Origin: Macrostomum lignano
Lineage: Eukaryota
Direction of reading: 5' to 3'
Length of the DNA stretch: 34,069 nucleotides
Assembly (NCBI GenBank): GCA_002269645.1
Contig: NIVC01003161.1
Location: 81,848 to 115,916, forward strand
Shown: one piece after another, positions 7,607 to 34,069 of the stretch
Layout of the letters: each line of letters opens with the position of its first letter
How positions within the stretch are numbered: the first letter of the stretch is position 1
Translations under genes and position numbers: made by a program
The notes under the pieces: generated by a model
Databases searched by the model: none
The model's input: the letters and a program-made list of their open reading frames with translations, nothing else
Told to the model about the DNA's origin: nothing

Positions 7607-7798
7607 TGTAGTGCGCTTGTGTGCTGAGAAAATCATGATCTCTTGGACCGTATATTTGAGCTACTATATAGTATCACTGCCGACGTGCGACTACAATGTT
7701 ACGCAATAGTTGAGGGTCAAGTGGCAGTGCACGTTGGTCGAGAGGGCTATGGTTAGTCATCACAGAAGAGTAAAGGCATAGAGTGGGCGTACACTACA
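7607..7798 (-). repeat. 3' LTR
   Basis: 192 bp, about 98% identical to 9743-9934, TG...CA ends. Confidence 0.95.
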
Positions 7799-7812
7799 TC
7801 TCTCCCCTAACC
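7799..7812 (-). promoter_or_regulatory. Polypurine tract
   Basis: Minus strand reads GGTTAGGGGAGAGA immediately before the 3' LTR. Confidence 0.8.
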
Positions 7813-8040
7813 AAAAAAGTACAAAGTCTGTAATTCGATTAACGGAGATTAACGAAACGAGATTTCGGAACAGTTGTGTTAGTCAGCCGTTGAGTGAAAT
7901 TTACGTTTGCATGTACATGTGATAATTAGTAGTCTGCAGTCTGCAGTTAGTAGGATGAGGCTCTGTTTTGCTGGCCTTGTGGTTTGCTGACGTGCTGGCG
8001 TGCGGCCAGTGGACCTCCCAAATGCCGTCGCACCCTTCGG

Positions 8041-9742: not shown

Positions 9743-9934
9743 TGTAGTGCGCTTGTGTGCTGAGAAAATCATGGTCTCTTGGACCGTATATTTGAGCTAC
9801 TATATAGTATCACCGCCGACGTGCGGCTACAATGTTACGCAATAGTTGAGGGACAAGTGGCAGTGCACGTTGGTCGAGAGGGCTATGGTTAGTCATCACA
9901 GAAGAGTAAAGGCATAGAGTGGGCGTACACTACA
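9743..9934 (-). repeat. 5' LTR
   Basis: 192-bp partner of 7607-7798. Confidence 0.95.
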
Positions 9935-11728
9935 TTATCTTAAAACTGAAACTCGTAATTCCAAAAACAATACAGCGTTTAGCGTTGTTAGCAGTTCAGT
10001 GTTATGATATTTCAGGTTTGTGATTATTTCGATTTCATGATAGGCGTTGCCAGCATTTTCGGAGCTTGATCGCTTTAAAGTTTTTGTTATGATTGGAAGT
10101 AAGAAAGTACAGTTAGATAGAAAAGCATCACGAGTCACGACAAGACCCCAACGGGGAGCATGAGAATTGCCCGCCGAGATTTGCTCGCGAGTGAATTGCA
10201 ATTCGTCAGCGGGCAATTCTCATGGACCCACCAACCCAAATGAGAACCCAAGCGAAGTGCAAGACCTAGATAGTTAATTTAGTTTTTTAAAGGAAGGGGT
10301 GGTTGATCAATACAAGGGCAATAAAATAATTAAAGTGACAAGAGGCCAACACAGAGGGAGGGGGAGGCAAGAAAAGAAAGATAAGGGGGTTGAAAACGGA
10401 TCGATAATTTCAATACCCCCTAGGCCTACAAGAACATCAGTTGTTCACTGATTATGTAGGACGAAGGGACAGAACGAGAGGGAAAGGGTGCAGGCACGAT
10501 TTTCGCGACCATATACTCATAAAAAGCGACGCGTCAATCCAAAGTCCAAACGAAAGGACGTGCAAAACTTTTTTCAGAGCGCGTAAAGCTGGCAGAAAGT
10601 AATTTGCGAGTTTTTGTGAAAGAGAGAACCCTCAAGGGAGACTTATCACAAAGACTGGGTGAATTTTTGTAAGGCCCAATCTTTGGCTTAGAAATCACTG
10701 CTATATACTGCTAGCCAAGCACCTGTTACTGCTTTCTCACTTCTCAGTACTTTTTTTGTTTTTTTATTGCCCGTACCGTAGCCCGGTAGCTAGTTGTTTT
10801 TGTTTTAATATATACCTGAATCCCTAGACCGATTCACGTGATTTTCCGCCCTTAAATTTGAACTGCTTACCTAATCAGGCAGAGTGAGAGAAGGGAGGAA
10901 AACACTCTGTGTACTTTTAGTGTTTCACTAAAACCTAGCTTTACGCATTACACATTTTGCTAAAATCCTGTGCTCAAGCTCATTGTGTGTGTGGTGTGCC
11001 CACAGTAAATCCGTGCGAGTCCAGCACACTGTTTACTCTTATTTTCTCTCTTACCCCCTTATATCTCTCCTATACTCATGTTCTGCTAGCACTGAGCTAA
11101 CATTGTCTGCCTGTTAGACTTTATTCATGCCGTTGCTAGGGCGTTGTCAGGTGGGGGGGAGAGGGCTTTTTTGATAGGCTTAGTTCCGGCTGTGGAAGCA
11201 CTGCACTAGAGCTTTTACTGCAGTCTGTATATTCCATACAATTAAATATGCAGTTTTATTTAGTTTATCTTCGATTATGCTCGCAATTTTAATTTTTCTC
11301 AAGACTTTTACCAATACTCATAAATAAGGTTGCCTTATTTATCTTTATAAGCCTGTTTTCTTGGTCTAATTATATTATATATAAAATATTATATTATACA
11401 CTCACCATACGCAATAGATAGTGACAGTCTGAGGTTACCTAATCGTTTTGCGCTTCAAAACATAATAGTTATATTTATCGCTAAAACATAAGAAAAGTAT
11501 GTGCTCTCGTATCTTGAAATATTTTGAAAACACTTCTCAGATGTATCGTAGACAGATATGATATGTACGAGTATGTAGCATGTTACTGTCATGTAAAGTT
11601 CTAAAAGGCCGATTGAAAAGCAGACAAACGGACACAAAGACAGACAGACAGAAACACCACGAAACTAAAACAGACAGACAGACCACCAGGACACTAAGAC
11701 AGACAGAAGCGCTAGACACGAATACGCA

Positions 11729-12400
11729 CAGAAGCGCTAAGACACGAAGACAGACAGAAGCACTAAAACACGAAGACAGACAGAAGCGCTAAGACACGAA
11801 GACAGACAGAAGCACTAAACCACGAAGACAGACAGAAGCGCTAAGACACGAAGACAGACAGAAGCGCTAAGACACGAAGACAGACAGAAGCACTAAACCA
11901 CGAAGACAGACAGAAGCGCTAAGACACGAAGACAGACAGAAGCACTAAACCACGAAGACAGACAGAAGCACTAAACCACGAAGACAGACAGAAGCACTAA
12001 ACCACGAAGACAGACAGAAGCACTAAGACACGAAGACAGACAGAAGCACTAAACCACGAAGACAGACAGAAGCGCTAAGACACGAAGACAGACAGAAGCA
12101 CTAAGACACGAAGACAGACAGAAGCACTAAACCACGAAGACAGACAGAAGCACTAAGACACGAAGACAGACAGAAGCGCTAAGACACGAAGACAGACAGA
12201 AGCGCTAAGACACGAAGACAGACAGAAGCGCTAAGACACGAAGACAGACAGAAGCGCTAAGACACGAAGACAGACAGAAGCGCTAAGACACGAAGACAGA
12301 CAGAAGCACTAAACCACGAAGACAGACAGAAGCACTAAGACACGAAGACAGACAGAAGCGCTAAGACACGAAGACAGACAGAAGCACTAAGACACGAAGA
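11729..12400. repeat. 26-bp minisatellite, about 26 copies
   Basis: Unit GACAGACAGAAGC(G/A)CTAA(GA/AC)CACGAA, with degenerate copies at both edges. Confidence 0.95.
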
Positions 12401-12581
12401 TGGACGGACAAGCAAACACTAAGACTCGAAGAGAGACAGACAAACAGATTTGTGTTCTATCTGTAGTGTTTCTGAATCTTTAATAATCATATAATAAAAG
12501 TATCTATAAAAAAACTAATTTTACTGCGCAATATTAGCAGTTGTGGCGTCCAATTCAGCATCCTTGACACCCAGCGGCAAC

Positions 12582-15349
12582 ATGCCGCCGGGTCAAAACG
12601 GCGGCCATGAGCACAGCACCGCCGCCCCTAACGGCGGCCATGAGCACAGCACCGCCGCCCCTAACGGCGGCCATGAGCACAGCACCGCCGCCCCTAACGG
12701 CGGCCATGAGCACAGCACCGCCGCCCCCAACGGTCATCGCCGACTAAAAAGCGACGCCGGGCCGCTCAATAATCGTCATCACAACCACGCATCGTCTACT
12801 GATAAGTCAGCCGCGGTGGCTCGAGCGCATTCGTTTGCGCCTGGACCTCGCGTCGTGCCTCGTCATCATCAGCACCATCAGCAGCAGAACCAACACGGAG
12901 CAGCTCTGGGCCATCGGCGAATGCACAGCTGCCCGCCGACTCCGCACCAGCTGTTTCTTCCAGGCCTGGCCATCCTGCCTGGAGGCTTCAACACCGAGTC
13001 AATCGTTGACAATCGACAGGATCAGCATCAGCATGGCAACAGTCGAGCTCGAGACTACGAGTTGGCAGTCGGCGCCACCCAGCTAGAGACGCCAACAACT
13101 TCGGCTTCGGACGGAGACGATGTCGGAATTGTCAACGATGCTTCGGAGGCTACGACAACGACGACATCGACGGAGCCAGAGCTGGACCCGAAGCTCACCC
13201 AATGCGGCCTGTTCTGCTACCACCCTGCCTGTCTGCAGCCGCTCGCCCGCCCCCTGCCATTCCTTGTGTCCGTCATTGGCTTGTACTTTGTCCAAAGCTT
13301 CATAGTCAGCGGCTATATTAATAGCATCAATACTACTATTGAGCTGAGATACGGACTAACAACTAAAGAGATTGGCTACATATACGCGTCGTATGAAGTG
13401 TTCTGCATTGTGGCTACATTCTTCATATCGTATTTTGGTCACGGCGGCAACAGATCCCGTCTATTGGGCATTGGCTGCGCAATCATTGGTATTGGATATT
13501 TTTTCTTTGCTTTTCCTCACTTCCTTGGCAGTGCCATTAGTAACACGGTGCCAGTGTCTGGTAATGCTTCCTCTTCTTCGACTGGCTCTTCTGCCTCCAC
13601 GATTAGTAGCAGTGGAGTCAAGCTGTGCAGCGGGGGAGGCGGTGGCGGCACTTCAGATATGAACTGTCAAGTGCAGGACTCAGCCTTGCTGATCCTATGC
13701 CTGAGCTTTGGTCTCATTGGCCTGGGCGCTAGCCCCGTGTACATCCTCGCCCCAACCTACCTGTGGGACAATGTACCTCAGAAGAGCTATCCTCTGTACG
13801 CGGCTTCGTTGCACATCACTAGCGCTCTTGGACCGGCTTGCGGCTTCCTAGGCGGCGCTGTGTTCCTGTCGTTGTACGTGAACTTTCCAAGCTCAGCGCC
13901 CGACGGTTTAACAACCAGCCATCCTCTATGGACGGGAGCCTGGTGGCTAGGATTCGTCATTTTCGCTGGTCTCGCTCTGCTGGTGGCTGTTCCTCTGCTG
14001 GCATTTCCAACTGTAATGCCGCACACTGCAGCGAAACGGTTGCAGAAGCAACAACAGCAGCAGCAGCAGCAGCAGCAGCAAAAAGCGCAACGTTCAACGT
14101 CCTCTCTAGACGCCGACGAGTTGACGCGAAATTCTTCAACAACAAATAGCGACGCAGCGATTGTGTCTTCAACAAATGATGACGATGAAGAGCCTAACTC
14201 GTCTCTGGATCAGTCGGCAGCTTCTTTAAGTCCGGCTGAGAAGCCGCACATTCGCGACATCCCAGCCGGTTTAAAGCGGCTGTTCAAAAACGCGTTATGG
14301 CTGTTTATCAGTCTGCTAATTGTGGCCGAGCAGTCTGTAGTACAAGCCTTCGTTGCTTACGTCAACAAGTACATGCAAAAGTCTTTTAATATCCCAGTGA
14401 CGCAATCCAGCATCATCACAGGTTTGTGTCTTGATTTTTAAAATTCAATTCAGTGACTTCGTATATTTCGTTGACTAGCAGGTCCTTAAGTGTATATTTT
14501 GACAGATCCTTCAGTGTCCATCATGACACATCCTTCAGTGTCCCATCATGACACATCCTTCAGTGTCCATCATGACACATCCTTCAGTGTCCCATCATGA
14601 CACATCCTTCAGTGTCCCATCATGACACATCCTTCAGTGTCCCATCATGACACATCCTTCAGTGTCCCATCATGACACATCCTTCAGTGTCCCATCATGA
14701 CACATCCTTCAGTGTCCCATCATGACACATCCTTCAGTGTCCCATCATGACACATCCTTCAGTGTCCATCTCAACACATCCTTCAGTGTCCATCCCGACA
14801 GATCCTCGGTTTAACTCCCATTCTGACACCACCAGCTTCGGTTTAACAAACTTGCTCCCCCAAAACTACTACCAGGCGCTCTCGTCATTCCTAGCGCCGT
14901 GATTGGCATCGGCGCCGGGGCTTTAATAATGCGCCGCTATAGGCCTAGCAACAAATCGGTGAGCCTACTCATGATGGGCCTGTGCGCCGCTACCACATTG
15001 CTCACTATTGGCCTGGCATTTTGCACCTGTCCGAATGTCAGCATGGCGGGACTGAATGCTCAGTATGGCATCCCGGCTACTAGCGGTGCGGCAGCTTCAT
15101 CATCAACAGCTGCTGCTCAGTTGCAGCTAAATGTGAGCTGCAATGCCGCCTGCCATTGCGGCAGTCTCAGCTACGATCCGGCTTGCGATGCTGTGAGTTT
15201 TTGTTCATTCTTCTGCTTTTGTGACATACAAGCTATCTTCAGTTGCTTCTGGTTTCTTGTGGATCATTTCCACTTACTTTTCACTACTAGGTTTAATTTA
15301 TGAGTGTAAGATGATCTTGAAAACTGTGATTGGTCAGTTCGTCAGTTAA

Positions 15350-15406
<57 letters not shown>

Positions 15407-15407
15407 C

Positions 15408-15458
<51 letters not shown>

Positions 15459-15459
15459 C

Positions 15460-15490
<31 letters not shown>

Positions 15491-15503
15491 CAGTTAGTTA
15501 GTC

Positions 15504-15537
<34 letters not shown>

Positions 15538-15553
15538 CTAGTTAGTTAGTCAA

Positions 15554-15585
<32 letters not shown>

Positions 15586-16573
15586 AAGTTAGTCACTTAG
15601 TTAATTAGTCAGTTAAATAGTTAGTTAATTAGTCGGTTAGTCAGTTAGTTAGTTAGTTAGTTAATTATTCGGTTTGTTAGTCAGTCAGCCAGTTCGCAAG
15701 AGGTACTTCCACACTGTCACAAATCAAGGCCACGGCCGACCCGCAACCAGGTTAATCTTATTATTTTTGTTATTATCGCTTACTGACAAGTAGTGATTGA
15801 AGAGTGTAAAGCGATTGATTGTATGCTTATAGACCACAAATTTGACACGTTTTCGCAATGTAAAGTTCAACTCGCCCCACCCTACCCAGCTCACGGGAAC
15901 AACCTACTTCACGCCGTGCCACGCCGGCTGTCAATCAAAGCAGTCCTCGACAGGGTCGAGCGATTCCTGGAATTACACCGACTGCTCATGCGTTCCCATA
16001 GCAACCAATGCCAGTCTGCCCGGTGGTTACGTCACTGGCGGTAAATGTACGGCTGCTTGCTACACGTTTGGCCCGTTCTGTGCACTGCTGTTCATCATTG
16101 TGCTGCTGACCGCCTGCGGCTACGAGCCCAGCCACATCCTCACTTTGTCCTGCGTCTCCGAGTCAGACAGCAGCTTTGCATTGGGCATTCAAAATATTCT
16201 GCAACGTTTATTAGCCTTCATACCGGCCCCGATCTACTTTGGCAGCCTGTTCGATTTCAACTGCCTGATGCGTTCGTCCGATTCGGCTTGCAGCAACGCC
16301 GACGCCTCGGCGTGCATGGAGTACGACTTGACCAGACTGCCCTACATGTGGATTGGCGTCATTCTGGGATTGAAAGTTGTCGGCTTCCTGTTTGCCAGCG
16401 CGTGCTTTCTGGTTAGTCGGGCTAGCCGAGCTGTTGATCTGCTGGACGTTGCGGCCGATGCCACAGTTGCTAAGGAGAAGGATGGTGGCGCCATGTCGGC
16501 TTCGACAAAGACTGCAGTTCAAATTGGTGCCTATAGTTCTAAGACTGATGTTGACGGAAATCACGTAGCCTGA
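12582..16573 (+). CDS. SLCO: Organic anion transporting polypeptide (OATP/SLCO), 3 coding exons 12582-14421, 14876-15192, 15890-16573; 946 aa predicted
   Basis: OATP motifs CGLFCYHPACLQ, GYINSINTTIELRYGL, FISYFGHGGNRSRLLGIG, W(T)GAWWLGF, the Kazal-like CNAACHC...YDPAC...TYFTPCHAGC, and FALGIQ...LLAFIPAPIYFG. Introns are GT-AG with matching phases (1, 0) and the exons total 2841 nt. An acceptor at 12540 precedes the ATG, so an upstream 5' exon or trans-splicing is possible. Confidence 0.93.
12597..12728 (+). repeat. 33-bp coding tandem repeat x4 (NGGHEHSTAAP)
   Basis: AACGGCGGCCATGAGCACAGCACCGCCGCCCC(T/C) occurs four times in frame. Confidence 0.95.
14501..14806. repeat. 24/25-bp intronic minisatellite, about 12 copies
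   Basis: Unit GACACATCCTTCAGTGTCC(C)ATCAT in OATP intron 1. Confidence 0.92.
15345..15685. repeat. (TTAG)n microsatellite in OATP intron 2
   Basis: Long TTAG run with TCAG variants. Confidence 0.95.
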
Positions 16574-19364: not shown

Positions 19365-21189
19365 ATGGAAACTGGAAAACTGCTTCCTGGCTGCCTGCTG
19401 CTGCTGCTGCTGCTTCTGCTGTCTTCAGCAGCTCACGGCTTGCCTGCTGCATCTTCTTCGGACAGCCAGAAGCTCCAGCAGGCACGGAGCTTCTGTGCAG
19501 CCTGGCGGCGCAGCGAGGCGCTGAATCGTCGAACTTCCATCTACCAGACCGGCCTGGTTGAGAAGTACCTGCTGGACTCGCTGACTGACCTGCAGGACTT
19601 CGAGACCGAGCTGTTGGAGAGGCGGCTGCTGGGAAAGTCGGTGCAGCACCTGCGGCAGCGACATTCATCGAGACTGACGCGGCAATTCGGCTTCAAGACG
19701 GTGCAGCCGTTGAGAAGCCTCGCCGGCCTCGGCGCTGACGTCTTCCACAACGCGGCGACTGCGGCATTCCTGATGGAGCGGCTGCTGGCTGAGGAGTTGG
19801 CGTTGGAAGTCCGCGACAGGTGAGGCATCTTTCTTTAACTGCGGTGATCTTTGCATCAGATTTTGCGTTTTCTCGGAGCCACCTACATGTAGTTGGTCAG
19901 AAGAAGTGAATGAAATTCTCCGTTAAGGTTGAATGAGCGCTTGAATCAGGCCCGCTGGGTCAGTCAGCAACTCAACAATCTGTATCAGAGTAGATCACAC
20001 AACAAACTGCAACTCAACAACAATCTGTATCAAAGTAGATCACACAACAAACTGCAACCCAACAATTTGTATCAGAGTAGATCACACAACAAACTGCAAC
20101 CCAACAATTTGTATCAGAGTAGATCACACAACAAACTGCAACTCAACAATCTGTATCAGAGTAGATCACACAACAAACTGCAACTCAACAACAATCTGTA
20201 TCAGAGTAGATCACACAACAAACTGCAACCCAACAATCTGTATCAGAGTAGATCACACAACAAACTGCAACTCAACAATCTGTATCAGAGTAGATCACAC
20301 AACAAACTGCAACTCAACAATCTGTATCAGAGTAGATCACACAACAAACTGCAACTCAACAACAATCTGTATCAGAGTAGATCACACAACAAACTGCAAC
20401 CCAACAATCTGTATCAGAGTAGATCACACAACAAACTGCAACTCAACAATCTGTATCAGAGTAGATCACACAACAAACTGCAACTCAACAACAATCTGTA
20501 TCAGAGTAGATCACACAACAAACTGCAACCCAACAATCTGTATCAGAGTAGATCACACAACAAACTGCAACTCAACAATCTGTATCAGAGTAGATCACAC
20601 AAAAAACTGCAACTCAACAATCTGTATCAGAGTAGATCACACAACAAACTGCAACTCAACAACAATCTGTATCAGAGTAGATCACACAACAAACTGCAAC
20701 TCAACAACAATCTGTATCAGAGTAGATCACACAACAAACTGCAACTCAACAACAATCTGTATCAGAGTAGATCACACAACAAACTGCAACTCAACAACAA
20801 TCTGTATCAGAGTAGATCACACAACAAACTGCAACTCAACAATCTGTATCAGATCTGCCTGGGCCTCCTAAATCCACAGAGCCATCCACAAACTCTGCTC
20901 TCGCAGACGGTCATCAGCTCGATTCGCGGACGACCTCTCCTACACCAGGGACAGCCTAGTGACCGCCATGCATCACCAGCACGAGTTCCTGTACCGGTTG
21001 GGCCACCGGTTCTCCTGGAGCGATCTGGGCCGGTACAGGGACCAGTTCAACAGGATCGAGAGGGTGCTGCACGGAGACCGCGAGGCTCGCTACCTGCGTG
21101 ACTACTTTATTGCTGGCATAGTTGCTGAGGCTGTTAATGAGACCGCGAGGGCTGTGCAGGTCCTGCGGCTGTGTCTGGGAGAGCAGTGA
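19365..21189 (+). CDS. Uncharacterised secreted protein; exons 19365-19819 and 20880-21189 (254 aa), or with an alternative donor at 21185 and a last exon at about 22264/22267-22297
   Basis: Signal peptide METGKLLPGCLLLLLLLLLSSAAHG. Phase-2 donor AG|GTGAGG at 19819 joins in frame to acceptor CCACAG|A at 20880, giving a continuous GC-rich frame to TGA 21189. No family recognised. Confidence 0.72.
19968..20852. repeat. 42/45-bp intronic minisatellite, about 20 copies
   Basis: Unit AATCTGTATCAGAGTAGATCACACAACAAACTGCAAC(T/C)CAAC(AAC). Confidence 0.95.
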
Positions 21190-21192
21190 GCT

Positions 21193-22022
21193 GGAGTGAG
21201 CAGTGTGATGGAGTGAGCAGTGTGATGGAGTGAGCAGTGTGATGGAGTGAGCAGTGTGATGGAGTGAGCAGTGTGATGGAGTGAGCAGTGTGATGGAGTG
21301 AGCAGTGTGATGGAGTGAGCAGTGTGATGGAGTGAGCAGTGTGATGGAGTGAGCAGTGTGATGGAGTGAGCAGTGTGATGGAGTGAGCAGTGTGATGGAG
21401 TGAGCAGTGTGATGGAGTGAGCAGTGTGATGGAGTGAGCAGTGTGATGGAGTGAGCAGTGTGATGGAGTGAGCAGTGTGATGGAGTGAGCAGTGTGATGG
21501 AGTGAGCAGTGTGATGGAGTGAGCAGTGTGATGGAGTGAGCAGTGTGATGGAGTGAGCAGTGTGATGGAGTGAGCAGTGTGATGGAGTGAGCAGTGTGAT
21601 GGAGTGAGCAGTGTGATGGAGTGAGCAGTGTGATGGAGTGAGCAGTGTGATGGAGTGAGCAGTGTGATGGAGTGAGCAGTGTGATGGAGTGAGCAGTGTG
21701 ATGGAGTGAGCAGTGTGATGGAGTGAGCAGTGTGATGGAGTGAGCAGTGTGATGGAGTGAGCAGTGTGATGGAGTGAGCAGTGTGATGGAGTGAGCAGTG
21801 TGATGGAGTGAGCAGTGTGATGGAGTGAGCAGTGTGATGGAGTGAGCAGTGTGATGGAGTGAGCAGTGTGATGGAGTGAGCAGTGTGATGGAGTGAGCAG
21901 TGTGATGGAGTGAGCAGTGTGATGGAGTGAGCAGTGTGATGGAGTGAGCAGTGTGATGGAGTGAGCAGTGTGATGGAGTGAGCAGTGTGATGGAGTGAGC
22001 AGTGTGATGGAGTGAGCAGTGA
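21193..22022. repeat. 17-bp minisatellite, about 49 near-perfect copies
   Basis: Unit GGAGTGAGCAGTGTGAT. Confidence 0.97.
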
Positions 22023-22813
22023 CCTGGAGGCAGCGGTGTAATGAAGTCAGCTAACTTATTAAAACTTACCCAAAAAGTAAATCCAGCTAAACCGATTGTT
22101 GGATTGTTAATTAATGCACTTCTTTCAAGGTATTTACAAAATTCTGTCATAATTTATTGATCACATCAAAAACGCACCTGCAATTCGTATAATTTATTGT
22201 TTTAACTACGAACTCATTCGGCTCAACCAGTTAATATATTTATTATTCGTGTACTTACTGCAGCAGGCCTGACAATATCAGCCAAATTTTGCAATAAGCT
22301 TTCTTCCTTTTTTCACCTTGTTTAGCAGTTTAACAAAGTTTTTTAACTCTCGTTTTGCTACACATTAGATTTTTAAATGCTAAATAGTTTGCATATTTGC
22401 ATACAGATTTTATCTTCATGCTATTTCACCTATATGCTGATCCCATGTTCTCAAAGCTAGCTACTACTGATAGCGGTATATGTAACAAAATTGCAAAATT
22501 TGATTCGATATTTTCAATAAACCTTCTGAGCAGTTTTTTTGTCTATTAAAATCGCATGCAGTTCTGTGGTTGCTATGCAGCCCAGGTTTTAACGTTATAA
22601 GTTCGTTAAATTTTATCGAGCTTTACTCTCTGAAATTCACCTAACCCTACTAATGAGTAAATCGAAAGGCAAAAAAGAAGACATTTAATAACATAACGGT
22701 AGCTGATTTTTCTAGCGCGATCTTTTTCATCCAAATTTGTCTATGGTGAAACCTCATTCAGTGCTGTGCGTTCTCAAGAGATTTTTTAAGAAAATTGAGT
22801 GCAGCGTCCTTCA

Positions 22814-23236
22814 TTATAATTCATTAGTTGTCCACGGGTGCACTAGGCTTCCAGATAAGTTTGCGCAGTCCAGAAACAGCGGCTGCACCTGCGGCTGCCG
22901 CTTCATCCTGAGCAGCACCGTGACGCCTGTGCCGAACCCGATGTCGCTCTTGTTCATGGCCAGAAACGAGCTGCTCCCATCGAACGCGGCGCCCTCCTCT
23001 GTCCACTGGACTCCGATCGGATAAATTCGGTTGGTCTCTTCGTCAGCCTGGCACACGACATTCTCAAATGCAGACATGTCGTCTCCGAGCCACACGTTTG
23101 TGAGCTTCGGGTTGAGCTGAGCCGGATATTTGATCGGAAATCGGATGAGCACTCGGCAGTCGCTGCTCGCACCGCCAGAGACAAGGTCGCGACACACGGA
23201 CTGGTAGCGGAAGAGACTGCACTACGTATCGCGCCA
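22814..23236 (-). CDS. Putative coding fragment with a LamG/concanavalin-A-like beta-rich segment; start uncertain (splice acceptor, or ATG 23236 plus a frameshift)
   Basis: GC-rich island with a protein-like frame SLFRYQSVCRDLV...EGAAFDGSSSFLAM...GVTVLLRMK. GAAFDGSSSFL resembles the start of LamG-type domains (pattern recognition only). An in-frame TAG lies just upstream. Confidence 0.45.
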
Positions 23237-23374
23237 TTAGAGCTGGGTTTTCAGAATTCTGACGCAAAAAACGCAAATTATACTACTATCTGAAAATGAA
23301 GTAAGTAGTATTCGAAAACGCTATCCTAAGCGTGATATATGGCAATATGTAGTCGTAATAATCCATGTGCTCAT

Positions 23375-24015
23375 ATATGTACATTAATCCCATGTACATT
23401 AATCCCTATCTATCTCAAATTGGATATGTACATTAATCCTATGTACATTAATCCCTATCTATCTCAAATGTCCATGTCTATACCCAATTCTATATGTACG
23501 CAGTATGTGCATTAATCCACATGTATAGTGTCATCCCCAGACGGCCCGCGCACACCAAAATTACAACTCGAAACCCTACTACATGTACAATCTCATCCAA
23601 ATGAGTCAACTAATTGTACAGCTCACATCGTATATAAACTATTTACAAAGAAGATATATTTACATTAAATCAGTAGCATATTACAGTAAATAATTTATGT
23701 ACAACATTACCAGCGAATAGAATATACAGAAAATTTTACATTGTTTTTCAATATTTTTCTCTTCATAAATGATTTTAAACAGGTCTGACACGCAAAATAT
23801 GTACAATAGATTTTTACATTGGCAATTTCGCCGCATACAATACAAAAATGCTTTATGTACATTGAATTATGTACAACAAATAGATTTACTCTAATAAATT
23901 TGGCAATACTACAATGCAAAAATGCTTTATATACGGCTCGTACATTGACATGCAAATTATGTACAACAAATAGATTTTTTCTGATAAATTTAACAATACA
24001 ACAATGTACATTGAA
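23375..24015. repeat. AT-rich, TGTACA-rich local tandem duplications
   Basis: Repeated ATGTACATTAATCC(C) at 23375-23520, and 2-3 diverged units of about 90-100 bp (AATTATGTACAACAAATAGATTT) at 23790-24015. Confidence 0.6.
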
Positions 24016-24038: not shown

Positions 24039-27000
24039 TTATTTATAGCCATAAGGCCTGCTGCCGGCCCCGTACACACGTTTTGTCAGGACGCGCTGAA
24101 ACGTCTTGTCCATACTAACAGTGTGAATGGTACAAGACGCCTTGTCGCGCCTGAACTGAAACTGCGGCAGCTGCAGAGAGCCACCGTGTAGCAGTGTGTT
24201 GCGCAGGTCGTCGCTACGCTCCCGTATCTCCGGAGTCAGGCGAATGCCCTTGCATTTCAAGACCTGGCTCCGGACACCGGCCGCATCCTCGACAATGTAA
24301 GTGTAGAGCTTGGGCCCTCCACTTACAAAGTCGGTCATCCGGCTGCCTGTGGGCACTTCGTCGGTCCACATTCCGAGGCTCGTGCCATGGGGCGGCTCCC
24401 ATTGGCCCTCGGAATGCCGGTAAACGACCCTGTGTGGGGGGAGAGAGAAAAACGAGATAATTAGTTCCACATGCTAACTATTTACATGTAATCAATTCTA
24501 AAAGAGCAATACTTACGAGTCAGTGTCGCAGTAAATGGCCCGTTCGCCGAGCCCCTCCAATGCCTCGTACAGGCGCAGCCGGGCCTGCGTGGTTGTAAAA
24601 ACACCGATTGGCACGTTGGAGTAGCGGAACGGCCGCTGATTAAAGTAGCGGTGCCGGTACTCCAGCAGCATAAACTCGCTGCCAATCGGTTCGCAGGCCT
24701 TGACTTTGAGGTTGGGGTCGGTCAGCCGGGCGAGCCAGTCCTCGTAGCTGGATACAATTTCTGTCGATGTCAGGTCGTCACGCTGACAAAATTTACCCCA
24801 GAGCCTGCGTGTAAAGAAAAGCTACTGTTAGTAGAAGAAGAAATCGTTTAAAAATCAATTTATGAATACTTACGAATTCAAAAAGATTTTCGCTACAAAG
24901 CGAAGTCCTGGGTTGGGCTCGACCTTGTCCAGCGTGACGCCCTCCTTTGCGTAGAAATCGGCAATATAGGCGGCCTTGTCTTCATCTGACATGCCGGGGG
25001 AGCCGCTCGACTCAGCCTTCAATTTGAGGAAGGTGCTGACATAGTCACATAGTCCAGTAGGCCAGCGCGTGCACCACCTGCAGCCGGTAGCCCAACTGGA
25101 AGGCCTTTCGCAGCTCCGGCGTGGCCCAGGTGCCAGTCAGCGCTCGCTCCTCGTCTGAGTGGTCGCAGCAGCCGCTGCACTGCTGCTCCATACAGGTGCG
25201 GCAAAGCCCAAAAAGAGATTCTTTTGCACCCTGTAGGGCAGCAGCGGAATATGCAAATCTGACGGCGGCAGCACTGTCACTTTGGCAATGCCAAAGTAGC
25301 TGGCCAGCGCGTCAGAATCGAGCACTTGCGGCGTCGGGTGGTTCACCGGGTGGCCAATCGGGTACGGGTCTTTCGACTGCACCGTCGGGTACAGAGAGAC
25401 CTGCCAGTTGAAATAAAACATTATTTTTCATAAACTGTATTTTTGCAAAATATTCTACTACATTAGTAGTATCACTACTCACCACATCCCGATATTTGAG
25501 AGTCTCAGTCTCGCTGGCCACAGCATGCGGGATAAAACACTCTACGCGGCCGCCGTAGAGCGCATCTTCCATCTTGAGCGGAGCGCGCAGATGTGCAGTT
25601 GCGGCAATGAAATCGGCCTGCGATGCCAATACAGTGTCGTATTCGTGCTCCCAAATGACTCGAACACTGTAATTGTGCCGCTCCAACTCGCGAGTGAACC
25701 ACTCAGTCTCGTGGCGGATATGGCTCAGAGGCTGCCGTTTGAGCGGGTGGACAACATCCTGATCGGGCATGCACTGCTCGCAGCCATGGTAGAAACAGCC
25801 ATGAAACTGCAAGACAGTGTTGGTGGCCTCATCAAAGCCGTCCACCTTGCGGCCGAGAATGACCGCCTCACCGCCAGTCGAGTCGCAGGTTCGCAGCCGC
25901 CCACCAAATTCGGTGGCATTCAAATAGGCCAGCCACTTGCGCGCCTTGAATGACTGCTGGTCGGCCTGCCGGGCAATCACGCCGACCGAGTTGGGCTCCA
26001 TAAACCGGGTGGTGAAAACGGCCATTGCTAAACTGGCAATCGTATTGGCCTGTACAAATGGTTCCAGGCCGTCGCAAATGTCACCAATTATTGCCCTGTA
26101 CTTGATGCAGCCCTCGCGAAGCAGGACTGTGTCGCTCAAACAATAATCGAGATACTCCCGATTAAAGTTGAACAACTCGCCCTGTCGCGAGGCTAGCCAA
26201 GCACAGATGGAGCCGTAATCCTTGTTTGTCTTGCCGCCATAATAATCAATAGTCGGGTAGGGGCCCACGTAGTTCCAATTAGCCGGCTTGTTGAACTCGT
26301 GGGGAAAGGTCCCCTTGGCCAGCTTTGTGTCCTCGAGCCCCAGAGCTTTGGGGAATTGCGCAAGCGGGATTGGTATAAAATTAAACGAATCTTTAAATAC
26401 CAATTTATCAACCGTCATGCTCATTAGCCGGCTGCCCTGGAACAGTACTTGGGGCCGCTTCTTGGCCAGGCCGTTGAGTAGAGCGCCAAGCAGTAAAAAC
26501 GAATCGTAGCCTGATGCATTATGCGCGACAACAATGGCGCCGCCTCGGAATGTGGTGCTTAGCCAGGCGAAAAAAGCATTCAGCGAGGCCGGGCCCACAG
26601 CCACAAAATCGGCCATTTGGCAGGCGCAGTCTGAAGGGCTGACGCAATTGGAGAATTCCTTCCCCAGATCGCGGCCAGTCAGACAATTGGCAGTGCTATG
26701 CAGGCCATTGCAGAGGCGGCAAGTCTCGCGCGGAAATGCCCGGCCGGAACAGGTCTCGCAACACGTGACGGCAGTCACCAGATGCACGTGATGCTGCTTC
26801 TCCTCATCCGTGTATGTTTCCGTATCGTAGAACACGTACGGCATAGTTGAAGCTTTCACTTTGGAAGCCTTGACGAAGCACAAATGCGAGCCGGCCTCGT
26901 CATACTGTTTACACAGTGGGCACTTGACATGGCCGCACTTGTGTTCCGGCTCCTTTTGCCCGACTTTCATCTCCTCCAAATATCCGCATTTGGGGCAGAC

Positions 27001-28061
27001 TCGGACAGAGTCGCAGCGCGACCGCCCAGCCCGGTTTTTCCGGCGGTGGTTGTCAAAACACTGCTGATTGTAACAATTCAATCCGCAGTCTGGGCAGCGC
27101 TTGTAGTCACGCTGCAGGCTCTTGCAATTGGAGCCGGGCACTTTACACTGAGGGCAGGTGTTGGAGCACTTGTGTTCTCCAGACACGCAGTCGTACGGCT
27201 GCTGGCAGCGGTCACAATAGCGACGGGCACCGAAAAATGGCGGCACCTTGCACACCGCGTTAGTGCTCGCCAATTAGGTGCAAATTCAGCACTGTGCTGC
27301 CTGGTAGGGCGTACACACATGTATTGCCCTCCTCGGCACTGTACACACGAACGCCGAAATCCCGGCCTGGTGACTGGGCGTTCAGGACAGCCAACAGTTG
27401 GGGGAGCATGTCAACCCCGAAAGGCCCGTCCTGTGCAATGGTTGATAAAGACTAAAACATTTGTATATTAATAAAAATGCAAATTAAAATGTGCAAGATT
27501 ATTTTTTACTCACCGAATACAATTTAGCAGCAATCTGAAGCTCCCCAGTCAGCTTCTTCTGCATTGTGGAGTCGGCCTTGACGGTTTGCCATGTAGTCCT
27601 AGTAATGGCCTTGGCCTGCAGATCGGCGAAAGCCTTGGCCACCACCAGCGCCCTGATGAGGCAACGCTTGTCGCTGTTGGCGATGACGACATAGCTGTTG
27701 CCCATAGCATGCCTGGCCTGAATATGCTTTTCCGCCGCATCTAGGCTGCCGCAGCCGCCCCGCGGAACCCAGGCCTTGAGCAAAAACAATTTAAAGTTGT
27801 TACCCAAGACGCTGGAGTCCGACTGCAGAACCTTGTTGATATGTTTAAATATCAGCTCTGCAGTGAAGCGGCTGCGGCGGACGGGCGGGACATTGATGGC
27901 GAGCATCATATTGTCCGCCGTCAGCTTAGATGCGACGAAATCATCTGCCCGCAGGTCCTCACAAAGTGTAGAAATTACTTCTGTGAATGTGGCGCGAATA
28001 TCAGTGGTATCGGTGAATGATACCACATACTCATACCCTGCGGCTCTAAATTTAGGCAGGG
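24039..28061 (-). pseudogene. polB: Polinton/Maverick/adintovirus-type protein-primed family B DNA polymerase, spliced and frame-disrupted. Exons 28061(or 28037)-27514, 27430-25483, 25400-24874, 24804-24517, 24429-24039
   Basis: ExoI FYDTET, ExoII AHNASGYD, ExoIII YCLSDT. Pol motif A YRDV|VSLYP, motif B KIFLNS|LWGKF, motif C YCDTDS|VV, and C-terminal FVSGGPKLY...KCKG. Joining four GT-AG introns (83, 82, 69, 87 bp) restores these motifs. Lesions lie near 27262, 25212 and 25050. Confidence 0.9.
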
Positions 28062-28171
28062 CTTTCGCCCCGCCAAGATGCGCAATGAAGCCCGAAAAAA
28101 TGAAGGGTTTTGAAATTAGAATTGCGAGAGGCGGCGGGTGTATGACTCATGAAATAAAATCAACTCTTTAC

Positions 28172-28222
28172 CATCGCCTTCGACAGTGTCGGGCTGGGGC
28201 GGGGGTTGAAATTGAGCCAAAT
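28172..28222 (-). CDS. Putative 51-nt symmetric (phase 1-1) exon 2 of the polB gene
   Basis: Acceptor TTTTATTGCAG|, then (D)LAQFQPPPQPDTVEGD, then donor G|GTAAAG. Phases match both neighbouring exons. Confidence 0.45.
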
Positions 28223-28261
28223 CTGCAATAAAATGCGCATGGTGACTAAAATTCTGACCGC

Positions 28262-28670
28262 TTGGAATTTTACAACTGTCAAAAATTTTTTGATTGATTG
28301 CCTGCAGCAGCAGCAATTTTATCGCCCCACCCCAAGCAACAAAAATCGGCGAGTTGTAAAAACCCCAACTCGGCACGTTCCGACACGTAGCAACAAAAGA
28401 AATGTGGGGTTGATTGAACCCCGCTTCGAATTTTAGGCTGTCAAAAATGTTTGATTGATGACCCTGATAACACTGATCCTGCCGCAGCAGACATTGTAAA
28501 ATTTAAGAAAACCCCCTATCAGCACGTGCCTCCATTGTGCCCCCTTGACACCTAGCAACAATACCGCGCGGTCGCTTTTGGATTTTTAAAGCTGTCATAA
28601 ATGTCTGATTAATAACCCTCACTGTAGCAGCCAAGTTTTATTGCTGCCAAAACCCCTACAATTACCGGTA
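28262..28670. repeat. Three diverged tandem units of about 160 bp
   Basis: Anchor GA(A)TTTT...CTGTCA.AAAT.T.TGATT at about 28265, 28428 and 28580, each followed by GCAGCAG-like and AAAACCCC blocks. Confidence 0.6.
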
Positions 28671-29223
28671 CAGCGGTGATTACATCATCATGCCCAAAAT
28701 CGGGGGTTGATTTTATCACTGCCGCCAGAATACCGGCCTGCCCACCCCGCTGAGTCACGTTCGCGCTGCAGGATTGCTGTTTTTGCTTCTCTCTAGTTCA
28801 AGGATTAGTCACATAACCCCTGAAATTTTATGACTATCCTCTACAGGCATTATCCGGCTATACTGCTGCTGCTGCGGATATTCTCTAAAACTCTGTTATT
28901 TCAACAGGCCTGAATTTGAGAAATCCAGTTCCTCCCTTTACTTCAACATCTATGTCAAGAGGAAATTCAGAAATTTTAAGTCAAAATGAATGTTAAAGAT
29001 GAAAAGCAGCTGTGGTTTCAAAGAAAGCCCATATTTCAACTAGCGAAAAAATTTGCAAATCACACAAATGCTAAAGCAATTATACAGCCCTATTTTTCTG
29101 AATTCAGATTTTGCAAATGCTAAAAGCATAGTTTTACACACGCAGAGACTCACCTAGCGGGCGTCCCCTCTTTGCGGCCGGAGGCTGATGCTGTTGTTGC
29201 TGTTGCTGCTGCTGCTGCTGTTG

Positions 29224-32200
29224 TTGTTGTTGTTGTTTTGGTGGTACGCGCCCAGGCAGAGCTAAGGGCAGTGTCTGGCCAGCGCTATCAACCCGAGGGG
29301 GTCGGCGGAAATGCTGCTGATGTCTGTCGTGGGTCCTCCAAGAAGGCGGAGCCTGGTGCCAGCGAGAGCTGGGCAGTCAAGCCAGTGTTTCAGGTCATCG
29401 CAGGGATGGCCGCAGCGGTGACATGCCGGGTCGACGGCCGGGTCGACAATGCTGCGATACGCGTTGAAAAGAGTGCAGTGACCTGAGCGTAAGCGCGCAA
29501 GAAGCACCGCATCGGCACGGTTGGTGATGGAGTCCTCTTCCAATTGACGGTTGAGAAGCCGGTACGCGTGCCGGGTGCGCTCGTGGCGTATCGGGGGATC
29601 GAGGACGGATCTTCTGATGACGTTTTTGGCGCTGTGGATGCTGATCTGACTAGCGGGAGACACGAGCGTGGTGGCCTCTTTGGCTGCTTGGTCGGCCAGC
29701 TCGTTGCCAGGAATATTCTGGTGGCCCGGAACCCACTGCCAGGTGATTTCGGCAGATGCAGTAGGTAGTGCAGATCTGATTCTGGGGTTGCCGCTGGCCA
29801 GAGCGCGGAGCATAGATTGGCTGTCGGAGCAGATGTTGGTAGCCGCGGTGAGAGCAGCTTGGTTGATCCAGCCGATGGCGAGAGAGGCGACGCGAAGCTC
29901 CTCTTCGAACGAGGATGTGGAGGGCGCGCCGCGCTGTTGAAGAGTCGCCAGGATGATAGGGTGGGCTGGGTCACCGGTCGTGACGATGGCTGAGGCGCCG
30001 CCATTGGTCGTGCCGCCTGATGCCGAGCCGTCGCAGTAGATGGTGATCAGGCCTGGGAGGTGGCGGATAGTGTCGATGGCCGTGGCTGTGCGCGCGGGAC
30101 CGGGTTCCGGCAACGCCATGTCGACACGCACGTCGGTAGAGAAAGGGTCCCAAGGCGGCGGACGAGCAGTGCAGATCATGGCGCGCGGCGTGACCGAGCT
30201 AGCTATGAGTGGCAGCAGGTCGGTGACGTGGTTCCGCCAACTGTTCCTGCGTAGCCTGTGCGCTGTGTTACCAGTGGCGGCAATGCGGCACGGGTGAGAA
30301 TCCGGGAGGCGCTGAGCTCTTTCGAAGGCCGTCAGGCATATAACATTGCTACCAGTGCGGACGGAGCAGATGCCAGCTTCCAGCCTAAGGGCCTCAACCG
30401 GTGTCGTGCGGTGTTGTCCTGTGACAATACGAAGAGCTGCGTTCTGCGCTCTCTCCAGCTGTTGAAACGCGGATTCAGAGAGCCAAGGGTGCCAGGCCGG
30501 CGCTGCTAAGTTAATGATGCTAAGTTGCATGGCACGGTAAATGCGGATCAGGAGTTTTTTGGACCAACCCCATTCCTTGGAGGCCAGGCAGGCGAGGAGA
30601 CGGCAACGGGAAGTGGTCCGATTGCACACGTGCTCCAGATGGCTGCGGAAACTCAGAGTGCGGTCCAGTGTGAGGCCCAGCAGCCGAGGCGTTGGATTGT
30701 GCCGCAGGTTCCGGCCTTCGATAGAGATAGCCGGGGACCAGGCGGCTTCGCTGGTGTCCGTGGAGAAAAAGGCGGCCTCGCTTTTGTCTGGGTTTAGGAC
30801 CATTTTGTGCTCATTGCTCCAGCGGGCCACGTTGTCGAGTGCTCTTTGCACAGCGCGTTGAGCCTCTAGCTTGTTGCGGTGGCGGGCGCGGAGGGCGATG
30901 TCGTCGGCATACATGGAGATCTCTGCCGGCGGGTTGACCACGTCATTGACCGTGTCAATGAAAATAAGGAAGAGAAACGGAGCGATGACCGATCCTTGCG
31001 GGAGGCCCTGGCGCATGATAACCGGTGAGCTGCGAGGACCGTGGAGTTGCACGCGGGCAATGCGATGGTGCAGAAAGGCCGCAGTCCATTTTATAAAGAC
31101 AAGAGGGACGCGTTTGCGTGCCATAACGGTGATGAGGCGCTCACGCCATACCTTGTCAAGGCTTTACAGAAATCAAGCAGAGCAATGATCGTGCGTTCAG
31201 ATGGTTTGAGGTTCATCCCGTCGCTGATGTCTTGGGTGACTCTCAGGAGCTGATCCTCGCAGGAGTAGTTGGCCCGAAACCCCGCCTGGTTCGGGGAGAT
31301 CCAGCCGTGGCGCTCAGCCAGGTGGTGCAATCTAGTGACCAGGATGCGCTCGAGCAGCTTGACAATACAGGATGTGAGGCTGATGGGGCGAAAGGCCGCG
31401 ATGTCCCGAGCTGACTTTCCAGCCTTGAGCAGGGGAATAATAATCGCGGTGCGCCAGGATTGAGCGACGGCCGCGTGCTGGAAGGACCAGTTGAAGAGAC
31501 TAAGCAGCTCTGCGCGGGCGAGCGGGCCAAGGGCCTTAATGAACCGAGGCGTGACCTCGTCGGCGCCAGCAGCGCCGTTAGCACGCTGGTGTTGTATGGC
31601 GGAGTCCAGTTCCTGCTCGGTGATGGCGGCGTATCCGTCGTGGGTCGAACCTGGGAGCGGAAGGGGAAGCCGAAGGATGGCTTTGGCTTCTCGGATAGTA
31701 GCGCGATCCGAATGGGAAATGTGGTACCTGCTGACAGAGGCGTACTGCTTGGCAAAGGCGTTGGCTTTGTCTCTAGGGTCTGTTAACACTTTGTTGCCGA
31801 CCTGGAGGGCCTCATTAGGGCAGTTGGAGTCCGGAGTGCCGTTAAGGCTGCGGATGAACTTCCACGCCTTGTTCGAGTTGGGCTCTTTCTCAAGATCGGT
31901 TATCGTGTCACGCCAAGCAGCCTCTTTCGTTGCCCTGGCAATTTTGTGAACGTTGGCGCAGGCGCTGAGCCAATCTTCTCTATTCTCGCCAACGGAGCGC
32001 CTGAGGCGGTTACGGAGCTTAATCGCCGCTTTGAGTTCAGGGGTGAGCCAGGGACGCGGTCTGTGCGAGGTACGGACTTTGCCGATGCAAAGGTTTGCCG
32101 CTTGCATGACTATATCATTAAAACGTTTGGCTCTGGCGTCAAAGGTAAGATGCTCTTTGTGAAGGGCTTTAAATTTGTCCTCGACGACCGTTTGGAAAGC

Positions 32201-32520
32201 ATTCCAGTCGACCCCTTGTTTGCGCCATATGAGACGGCTTTGGGCCTTAGGCAAGGTCCTAACCTTGAGGTCAAGGCGGATCACAATCGGCGTGTGATCA
32301 CTGCCGAGGTCATCGGAGACTTGCCAGGTGCATTTGCTAGCCAGCTTTGAGGAGGCGAAGGACACATCCGGTGAGCTTTCGCCACCTGTGGCTTTATTGA
32401 CTCTGGTGGGCGAGCCGTCGTTAAGGATTTCCAGTTGCGAGTCGATGGACCAGTCCAGGAGCGTGGAGCCTCGTTCGTCCTGGGGCTGTATAGGGTCCCA
32501 GGCCGGAGAGTGCTCTGTGC
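29224..32520 (-). mobile_element. 5'-truncated non-LTR retrotransposon (I-group-like: APE remnant, RT, RNase H, C-terminal zinc knuckle) with (CAA)n tail
   Basis: APE C-terminal half HSPAW...RG...LNDGSPT...PDVS...DLGSDH. RT motifs FRPISLTS, QAGFR, GLPQGSVIAP, YADD. RNase H IYCDGS...SDSQS...WVPGH..IPGNELAD. Zinc knuckle CHRC...HWLDC. 20-bp TSD at 29204-29223 and 32521-32540. Confidence 0.93.
29262..32512 (-). pseudogene. LINE ORF2 (endonuclease remnant-RT-RNase H) with a single -1 frameshift near 31158
   Basis: ORFs 31091-32365 and 29262-31124 join as LDFCKA(F)DKVWRE if one T is restored in GCC-TT-GAC. Confidence 0.88.
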
Positions 32521-32870
32521 TGCTGCTGCTGCTGCTGTTGTGAGGGGCCTGCTCGCCCCCACAAGGCTGAAATTGCTGCTTCAGCGGCCGAACGTTTTGA
32601 TGCCATGCTTCTGCTGCTGCTGCTGTGCTACTGCGATTGCGGCTGATGCTGCTGTGATTGCGACTGTGACTGCTGATGCTTGCGGTTTCTGATGCTGCTG
32701 CCGTTTGCTGATGTTGTGACTTCTGCTGTTGTTGCTTCTTCTGCTGCTAGCTGTGCTGATGCTGCTGCTGTGTTGCCGCTGTTGCAGGCTGATGCTGTTG
32801 AAGCAGTTGATGCTGCTGTTGTGGCTTCTGCTGCTGCTGGCTGCTTTTGCTGATGCTGCAGCAGCAGCTC
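32521..32870. repeat. CAG/CAA-rich low-complexity tract
   Basis: Cryptic (CAG/CAA/CAT)n on the minus strand. No long consistent frame upstream of ATG 32606. Confidence 0.8.
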
Positions 32871-32961
32871 TCACCCGCTTTATATACCCTGCGAGAGGGA
32901 GGATGGGGTAGGGGCACGAGAGGTGTGCGTGATTTTCTTTCCCGGGTCTATATTTTCTAGA

Positions 32962-33770
32962 TTAGTGTACGATTGTACACTCGGTTCCGCATTTGGTATA
33001 GAAAAGTTGGGGGTCGAAAATACCCACCAATTCTTTTCTCATGCGGTATTTTATTGGATCTGAGCGGAGCCACCCAACCAGCATTCTCGCAGGAGTGAAA
33101 ACTGCTGCTCCGCCAGAGTACAGTCTCTTAATTAGGAAGACCGCTTCCTCTTGCAGCATGTCTTTTCGACTTGAATTGGATAGAAAACGGTGTTTATTCA
33201 AAAGACAATACCTTGGCGGACCAATAATAGCTAAATACAGATGAAAAATATGAAAGATGACTTCTGTGGTTTTTAAGGCCCGCCGGTCTCTGCGAGAAAA
33301 TGGTTGTTAAAAATCGCTGTATCAATTTAAGAACCTGGGAGAAATGGGGCTTGTGTGCAAAGCATCTGATTGACAGAGGCTCGGGGAAGAGAAATAGTCG
33401 ATGAAAAGCTCTTGCCATCATCCAAAATATCCATCAAAGAGTAATAAAGGTGACAGCCCCTGTCGCAAGCCAAATCAGAGACAGAGTTTTCTACTTCTGT
33501 TTACGTAATGTTTAGGGATGGACCTGGGGTTATAGGGACAGAGAGTCAGTTATGGCATTTACGCGGTAGTAAAGAATTGCCTTGGTGAGGCTTGGGTAGG
33601 TGTTGTTCTCTCCATATTGGCGAACATTAATAGTCCTGGGTTGAATTTTGAATATGGCTAGAATGTATAGCGGCCGGAGAATCGTTGAATTGAAGGGTGA
33701 ATCAACATGCAAAGTATGCAACAAAACCGATTCAGTGCATCTAAAAGAGGCTGTTGTGAGCTTCAGAACT
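32962..33770 (-). other. Possible degenerate spliced coding region of unknown identity
   Basis: Protein-like segments LHVDSPFNST...YYRVNAITD, DLACDRGCHLYYSLMDILDDG...QAPFLP and (A)IIGPPRYCLLNKHRF...CGTECTIVH. A phase-compatible CCAG|GT...TTTAG| intron lies near 33336-33232. One stop and one frameshift are needed upstream. Confidence 0.3.
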
Positions 33771-34069
33771 GAGAATAACGTTTAAAATAGCATCAATGGC
33801 ATGATGTAGTAATCGAAATCAATTGAATGCTGAAAACTTTAGGTTTAATAGGGTAATTGCAGACTGTGTTTTTAGCCCCAATTTTTACAGTGTCTATAGA
33901 ATATTTCCCCAGCTTCTTGGACAATGTACATGCCTATTTGAATGACAAAACAACATTTTTTGATGGTATATTAGCTAAAATTATGATTTCTATTGATAAA
34001 ATGGCAGATTTTGATCCATAAAGTAAGCATTTTAACGTTAAAAATCGAAAAATGAGGAAAACTCGTGTT

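Follow-up and report, generated by a model that had tools for sequence, protein, structure and literature searches.

Polintons, or Mavericks, are thought to excise from the chromosome, to be copied by a polymerase that they encode, and to insert again, a cycle that has been little tested in animals; their size range is given as 13 to 25 kb (10.1101/2023.08.22.554363). Intact vertebrate Mavericks are reported to be intronless (PMC8097293) and to carry a complete virion gene set. Fungal cytoplasmic linear plasmids and transpovirons are described as capsid-less linear replicons that arose from Polintons minus the virion module (10.1101/2024.03.18.585575). In Caenorhabditis elegans, a family B DNA polymerase that is protein-primed (pPolB) lies beside terminal inverted repeats (TIRs) without an integrase at 10 places, which are termed remnants (10.1101/2024.01.15.575659); Polinton-related insertions in flatworms have also been mentioned (10.1101/2025.04.19.649669). 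We consider a polymerase gene of Macrostomum lignano (genome, 764 Mb) found in a stretch of 34,069 nt at the end of contig NIVC01003161.1, called the window; the feature under study lies on the minus strand at positions 28172 to 32888. The window probably contains a broken copy of a multicopy element of about 9 kb, the intact members of which are likely copied in the nucleus as linear DNA; the integrase that inserts them likely comes from full-size Polintons resident in this genome. The best reading of this element is a reduced, nucleus-adapted Polinton derivative that is likely integrated in trans.

The 5′ region of the polymerase gene has 63 matches across the genome. Full-length polymerase matches number at least 26 at 93 to 100% identity (family A, the window type) and at least 37 at 64 to 65% (family B, a second family that is about 65% identical in the polymerase). 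Genome match counts and TIR searches both give lower bounds, with the best 40 of 214 and the best 40 of 268 TIR candidates scored. Paralogous loci match the window from 23221 past the contig end. Among 17 polymerase loci read end to end, both ends were present in 16; these begin with ACTAC, as ACTACT in family B and ACTACG or ACTACA in family A. Exact 6-bp duplications flank 12 of the 16 complete elements and 5 of 5 noncoding elements. In the remaining four, among them the window's sisters, the flanks are reciprocally swapped, and the 6-bp duplication was not found in the window's lineage. The swap is between window-type elements and those of C3173 and C4472, with each arrangement present on two contigs (window 23215-23220; L081, L191, L023, L024, L029, and L031), and reflects either ectopic recombination between two copies or misassembly. 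Without large inserts, the elements measure 8.8 to 10.8 kb, and nine family B TIR pairs around a polymerase span 8.5 to 9.1 kb. CACTA/EnSpm transposons have fixed CACTA ends and duplications of 2 to 3 bp; that identity is ruled out by the variable base before ACTAC and by the 6-bp duplication.

Much of this is shared with Polintons. The polymerase matches PF03175 above the cutoff, as is expected of a protein-primed family B enzyme. The predicted order of its domains, terminal protein (TP), vOTU, exonuclease (EXO), and palm (PALM), named after 10.1101/2024.03.18.585575, is that of adintovirus-like Polintons, as are the TIRs with a short repeated end motif and the 6-bp duplications. A PC4-like gene is also present in one resident Polinton family. 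In contrast to Polintons, however, the element has no integrase, capsid, penton, or packaging ATPase in any of the 16 complete copies (searched with 11 proteins taken from one viral contig and from two Polinton families of this genome), falls below 13 to 25 kb, carries six spliceosomal introns, and ends in ACTAC rather than AGTAGT. Thus, it resembles the Polinton replication module yet falls outside Polinton membership with respect to integrase, virion genes, size, and introns.

One could suppose that these elements arose by internal deletion from a full Polinton of the same lineage, present but not found or recently lost, and that this parent moves them as ordinary nonautonomous copies. The genome searches do give lower bounds, and the nearest viral contig (L184; polymerase, 27%) appears, by reading of its sequences, to be a full Polinton-like virus that pairs such a polymerase with integrase-, capsid-, and ATPase-like open reading frames (ORFs). 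The C. elegans loci provide a precedent, with a polymerase beside TIRs and no integrase. Nevertheless, we consider this explanation unlikely. The two families have saturated synonymous divergence and still share the same compact layout and six introns, both are under purifying selection, the family B TIR pairs span only the short distances given above, and structural genes are absent from all 16 complete elements. The C. elegans loci are described as partial remnants of a resident Polinton, whereas the element described here forms two families, both old, in which the compact layout is fixed and which have introns, their own duplications, and purifying selection; no resident parent was found.

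The sole other gene found in the element is a divergent PC4-like ORF, present in all four complete family B elements and in 6 of 29 family A stretches; no intact divergent gene was found in the upstream arm of the window. The family A protein passes the Pfam PC4 cutoff. The divergently oriented protein apparently has two PC4-like repeats (L121:7095-7898, L089:282-776, and L134:5133-5855). Family B copies carry a PPPAKRVK motif. A 24 to 28% homologue of the PC4-like protein is encoded in one resident Polinton family. The upstream arm of one family A element (L121:8065-9234) also contains a duplicated exon 3 fragment and a Ser-rich frame of 202 codons.

Other ACTAC-ended elements, 6.6 to 9.5 kb in length, are noncoding (L062-L068 and L080). 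Their existence raises the question of a multipartite system, in which integrase and capsid genes would reside on separate ACTAC-ended segments. Many ACTAC-ended elements do lack the polymerase, and at L075 an ACTAC arm abuts integrase and capsid genes. However, the polymerase-less elements that were read are duplications of the noncoding arm, with such markers in 0 of 5; L075 is a full AGTAGTA-ended Polinton nested within the arm of a mini-element; and the capsid-bearing elements have their own polymerase. A multipartite arrangement is therefore very improbable. Of 15 loci inspected, 4 hold near-perfect palindromes of the upstream arm, 9.5 kb long and ending in ACTAC; one of them shows both ends and the duplication. 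There are other routes to palindromes, but those seen here suggest copying errors by strand switching during free linear replication.

The polymerase gene has seven exons and six introns (Table 1), as an earlier note on this DNA had described, and a coding length that remains about 3.9 kb. The 51-nt exon 2 also has the AG/GT ends given there, and its counterpart in family B is 49 nt. The acceptor of exon 3 had been misplaced, at 28062 or 28038: among 23 family A copies, AG precedes these positions in 13 and 15, respectively, with means of 4.0 and 4.6 upstream pyrimidines, whereas the site at 28091, before GFIARL, has AG in 20 of 23 copies and a mean of 10.3 pyrimidines among the 12 upstream positions. 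The family B acceptor before GFTARL corresponds to the 28091 site, which public gene models also use; the misplacement probably arose because the window copy has lost this acceptor. The remaining exon borders agree with those implied by the note. All six intron sites are common to the two families, and in both, three of the introns (25483/25400, 24874/24804, and 24517/24429) fall within or beside polymerase motifs A, B, and C.

Splicing was examined on an uninterrupted paralogue, using contigs assembled from four sequencing runs, of three studies in all, that are probably RNA although none is on record as such. GT-AG joints for the three 3′ introns were present in 4, 3, and 4 of the 4 runs, and these introns appear to be spliced. 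Joints of exons 1 to 2 and 2 to 3 were not among the 15 joints listed out of 39, so that splicing of exon 1 to exon 2 to exon 3 is inferred from conservation. The public model P0037 joins the end of the family B leader to exons 2 and 3, and P0010 uses the family A donor with a different acceptor; either may be pure prediction.

The first exon encodes a low-complexity leader that belongs to the polymerase gene. The earlier note had predicted that removal of the inserted long interspersed nuclear element (LINE) would restore a contiguous leader exon, and such an exon occurs naturally. Among 37 stretches surveyed, an exon 1 anchor was found in 31, of which 17 are uninterrupted and 14 interrupted. 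All 17 uninterrupted copies (118 to 160 nt) end in the phase-1 donor GTGAGT, and 16 keep the ATG; the start at 32606 and the donor at 29153 are as the note had them. The phase-1 count is weaker than it appears, because slippage of CAG preserves the frame anyway and several of the 17 copies are near-identical duplicates. A stronger test is the codon pattern: when 15 copies are compared over their opening 22 codons, 49% of synonymous sites vary compared to 2.7% of nonsynonymous sites (dN/dS, 0.03; the pairs are not independent), and thus exon 1 is coding. Family B has a leader of 61 nt (MAKRSA...KRQRLY), likewise in phase 1, that is short and basic and contains no polyglutamine (polyQ). PolyQ is therefore not a fixed part of the leader; even in family A, the length of the tract varies. 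None of 202 proteins checked begins with the leader, and none of 48 candidates joined the natural exon 1 peptide to a longer protein, although the latter is weak evidence.

The basic motif of the leader had been read as resembling either an AT hook or a nuclear localization signal (NLS). AT hooks are defined by a conserved Gly-Arg-Pro core. The motif is KRGRQL in 11 of the 17 family A copies, KRRQL in 5, and KRGRPL in 1, and it is KRQRL in family B. The proline is thus present in only one copy, and Pfam gave no match; an AT hook is not supported. PAAKRGR or PAAKRR in family A resembles the c-Myc-type PAAKRVKLD, and KR-x10-KRQR in family B has bipartite spacing (definitions in PMC6071259). The motif therefore looks like an NLS, with a classical pattern in both families, in agreement with the other half of the earlier reading.

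Every exon tested is under purifying selection in both families, with dN/dS values between 0.03 and 0.20; in family A, they are 0.03 for the start of exon 1, 0.20 for exon 3, 0.10 for exon 4, 0.11 for exon 5, 0.05 for exon 6, and 0.12 for exon 7. Exon 3, the predicted terminal protein, is more diverged in family A than the other large exons (dS, 0.55 versus about 0.2; dN, 0.11 versus 0.02), and the terminal sequences of the element are variable as well. Such selection, together with introns, a TATA-like promoter, and spliced forms in probable RNA, might be taken to mean that domestication has turned the polymerase into a host gene and that introns, NLS, and selection reflect a host function. 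We find this hard to credit: copies are dispersed by the dozen, each with a fresh 6-bp duplication of its own, many members are broken, and no relative outside M. lignano exceeds about 41% identity among the best 150 hits, the named ones coming from a sea anemone and a sea spider.

Natural copies have intact vOTU Cys and His, exonuclease, and palm motifs, and the VSR-like motif is present in them; the vOTU Cys and His are invariant across 13 aligned proteins. In a weak structural model, residues 81 to 180 form a predicted compact alpha/beta domain without a domain-level fold match, and the best fold match of the model is an adintovirus polymerase (PolB). On C234, a match to the polymerase at 37% is a relic, fragmented and rich in AT.

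If the element is a Polinton derivative integrated in trans, where would the integrase come from? Full Polintons of about 17 to 18.5 kb occur in this genome in two or more families (L075, L102-L120, and L126-L134). They end in AGTAGTA and encode an integrase, capsids, an ATPase, and a polymerase unrelated to that of the element; integrase-bearing Polintons are abundant. In the first family, 6-bp duplications flank 2 of the 3 copies with both ends. Integrases of the rve type typically give 6-bp duplications (PMC12220804), and it is for this reason that we propose integration in trans. One Polinton family has a PLA2-like domain fused to the integrase and 134 capsid matches, and first-family copies bear two quite different polymerases (L118 and L120).

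We imagine that host polymerase II would transcribe the polymerase gene from the TATA-like promoter and that host splicing would yield a single polymerase, with the spliced leader supplying an N-terminal NLS for entry into the nucleus. There, the terminal-protein domain may prime synthesis at the repeated ACTAC ends and the vOTU domain may release the terminal protein, as proposed for Polintons (10.1101/2024.03.18.585575), for which a role of the end motif has also been discussed (PMC8097293). The PC4-like protein could bind displaced single strands, and a foreign integrase, from full-size resident Polintons, would insert the replicated product.

Several points weigh against this account. The helper link is indirect and its weakest step: resident Polintons and the element show no TIR sequence homology, their ends differ (AGTAGTA versus ACTAC), and the resident polymerase is only remotely related (26% over 183 amino acids). 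Since only the best TIR candidates were scored, the search may have overlooked an ACTAC-ended element that carries an integrase of its own. A free linear form was not observed, the PC4-like gene is absent from most family A copies, and the fold model is weak (pLDDT, 56). Finally, the runs are only guessed to be RNA, without a DNA control, and none of the 15 joints listed, out of 39, connects exon 1 to exon 2 or exon 2 to exon 3.

Beyond a Polinton derivative integrated in trans, one can envision a long-lived nuclear Polinton satellite: a self-replicating linear mini-replicon that keeps only a polymerase and a single-stranded-DNA-binding protein, has a host-style gene structure (six introns, a TATA promoter, and a spliced NLS exon), and parasitizes the integrase, and perhaps the capsids, of unrelated Polintons. 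We regard this fuller picture as possible rather than probable. Like fungal linear plasmids and transpovirons, the element would be a capsid-less Polinton-derived replicon; unlike them, it sits in the chromosome between 6-bp duplications, its introns and NLS-like leader point toward the nucleus, and it has a full exonuclease, while a helicase fusion was not seen. Our literature search found neither Macrostomum Polintons, nor an intron-split Polinton polymerase, nor a polymerase-only family described; it did not cover subscription papers or repeat databases, which may already name these families.

Table 1. Features of the polymerase element in the window and interrupted paralogues of exon 1
Feature	Position	Strand	Remarks
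TIR at downstream element end, begins ACTACG	23221..23650	+	End common to many loci; inverted upstream of promoter in other copies
Exon 7: end of palm/thumb, stop codon	24039..24429	-	Joint in 4/4 runs
Exon 6: LWGK to YCDTDS, motifs B and C at its two borders	24517..24804	-	
Exon 5: begins within motif A (VSLYP)	24874..25400	-	Window-copy deletions near 25214 and 25051
Exon 4: vOTU His, Cys-rich region, exonuclease, VSR-like nuclease motif, start of motif A	25483..27430	-	PF03175, motifs; deletion with frameshift near 27261 in window copy
Exon 3: predicted terminal-protein domain and vOTU Cys	27514..28091	-	Acceptor lost in window copy
Exon 2: Pro-rich linker of 51 nt, both ends in phase 1	28172..28222	-	AG/GT and 51 nt in 13/19 paralogue stretches, the other 6 not covering exon 2
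Exon 1, 3′ part: remaining CAG/CAA tract and basic NLS-like motif	29154..29224	-	Phase-1 donor GTGAGT at 29153
5′-truncated LINE: endonuclease remnant, reverse transcriptase, RNase H, (AAC)n tail; frameshift near 31160	29225..32520	-	
Exon 1, 5′ part: MASKRSAAEAAISALWGRAGPS and start of Gln tract	32521..32606	-	ATG at 32606; paralogue dN/dS 0.03
TATA-like box (32886-32880) and CAG-rich, ATG-free putative 5′ untranslated region of ~270 nt	32607..32886	-	
Noncoding upstream arm, runs past contig end; no PC4-like gene	32887..34069	.	
Interrupted exon 1 paralogues	L024, L030, L099, L121, L124, L137, L142, L148, L149, L151, L153, L158		

The copy in the window has five lesions: the LINE, the lost acceptor, and three small deletions in exons 4 and 5. 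Two sister contigs carry the same LINE and the same deletions, which are thus not assembly noise; one of the sisters retains the 28091 acceptor, and so the acceptor loss came last. A LINE does split exon 1 as the earlier note had it, but the flanks have 21 rather than 20 nt of the CAA/CAG run in common (32541-32521 and 29224-29204), a length that is ambiguous within the run. That this insertion knocked out the gene is possible; it is one lesion of five, and either the LINE or the deletions may have come first.

The insertion has the endonuclease, reverse transcriptase, RNase H, simple-repeat tail, and target duplication of an RNase H-bearing LINE, and its family includes 19 close copies (about 99% identical) among 23 matches (L161-L181). 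The tail is followed directly by at least three CAG units at 14 of 16 distinct sites, as against 0.7% of background positions; 2 of 4 truncated copies also have CAG 5′ of the LINE, as does the copy in the window. Pairing between tail and target repeats is a likely cause of such a preference. The exon 1 CAG tract is interrupted in 14 of 31 copies, by about 11 independent events (the far side is out of view in 3 copies), with insert tails of (AAC)n, (GAA)n, (CA)n, and (AG)n and, in one contig, a second LINE nested at the same site. The tract is a preferred landing site of several LINE families, and this is why so many copies, the window's included, are interrupted. Non-LTR (long terminal repeat) retrotransposons that target microsatellites, such as Waldo, Mino, Kibi, and Koshi, likewise combine a simple-repeat tail with a repeat target; the target here differs in being CAG, often in apparent coding sequence. 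No paper on a CAG-targeting LINE was found in our literature search. Given that this genome is rich in CAG, the LINE family is a likely mutagen of its polyQ-coding exons.

Elsewhere in the window are a host OATP-family transporter gene with a polyQ stretch (12519-16573, plus strand) and an LTR retrotransposon remnant with 193-bp direct repeats and zinc knuckle and protease-like matches (7607-9935, minus strand). Tandem arrays lie at 11561-12562, 14476-14820, 15269-15640, 19889-20853, and 21017-22050, with units of 26, 25, 8, 42/45, and 17 bp, respectively. An open frame of about 135 codons in the host flank (22814-23220, minus strand) has no Pfam match and reaches the end of the element; it is possibly interrupted host sequence.

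In M. lignano, a laboratory flatworm, selection has maintained two old families of a polymerase-only version of a Polinton, and probable RNA contains spliced forms of it. The element separates replication from integration and packaging, and each can therefore be examined. It also presents a virus-type gene that has acquired a host gene structure while remaining mobile. If the satellite interpretation is true, it would be the nuclear counterpart of the fungal linear plasmids and transpovirons.

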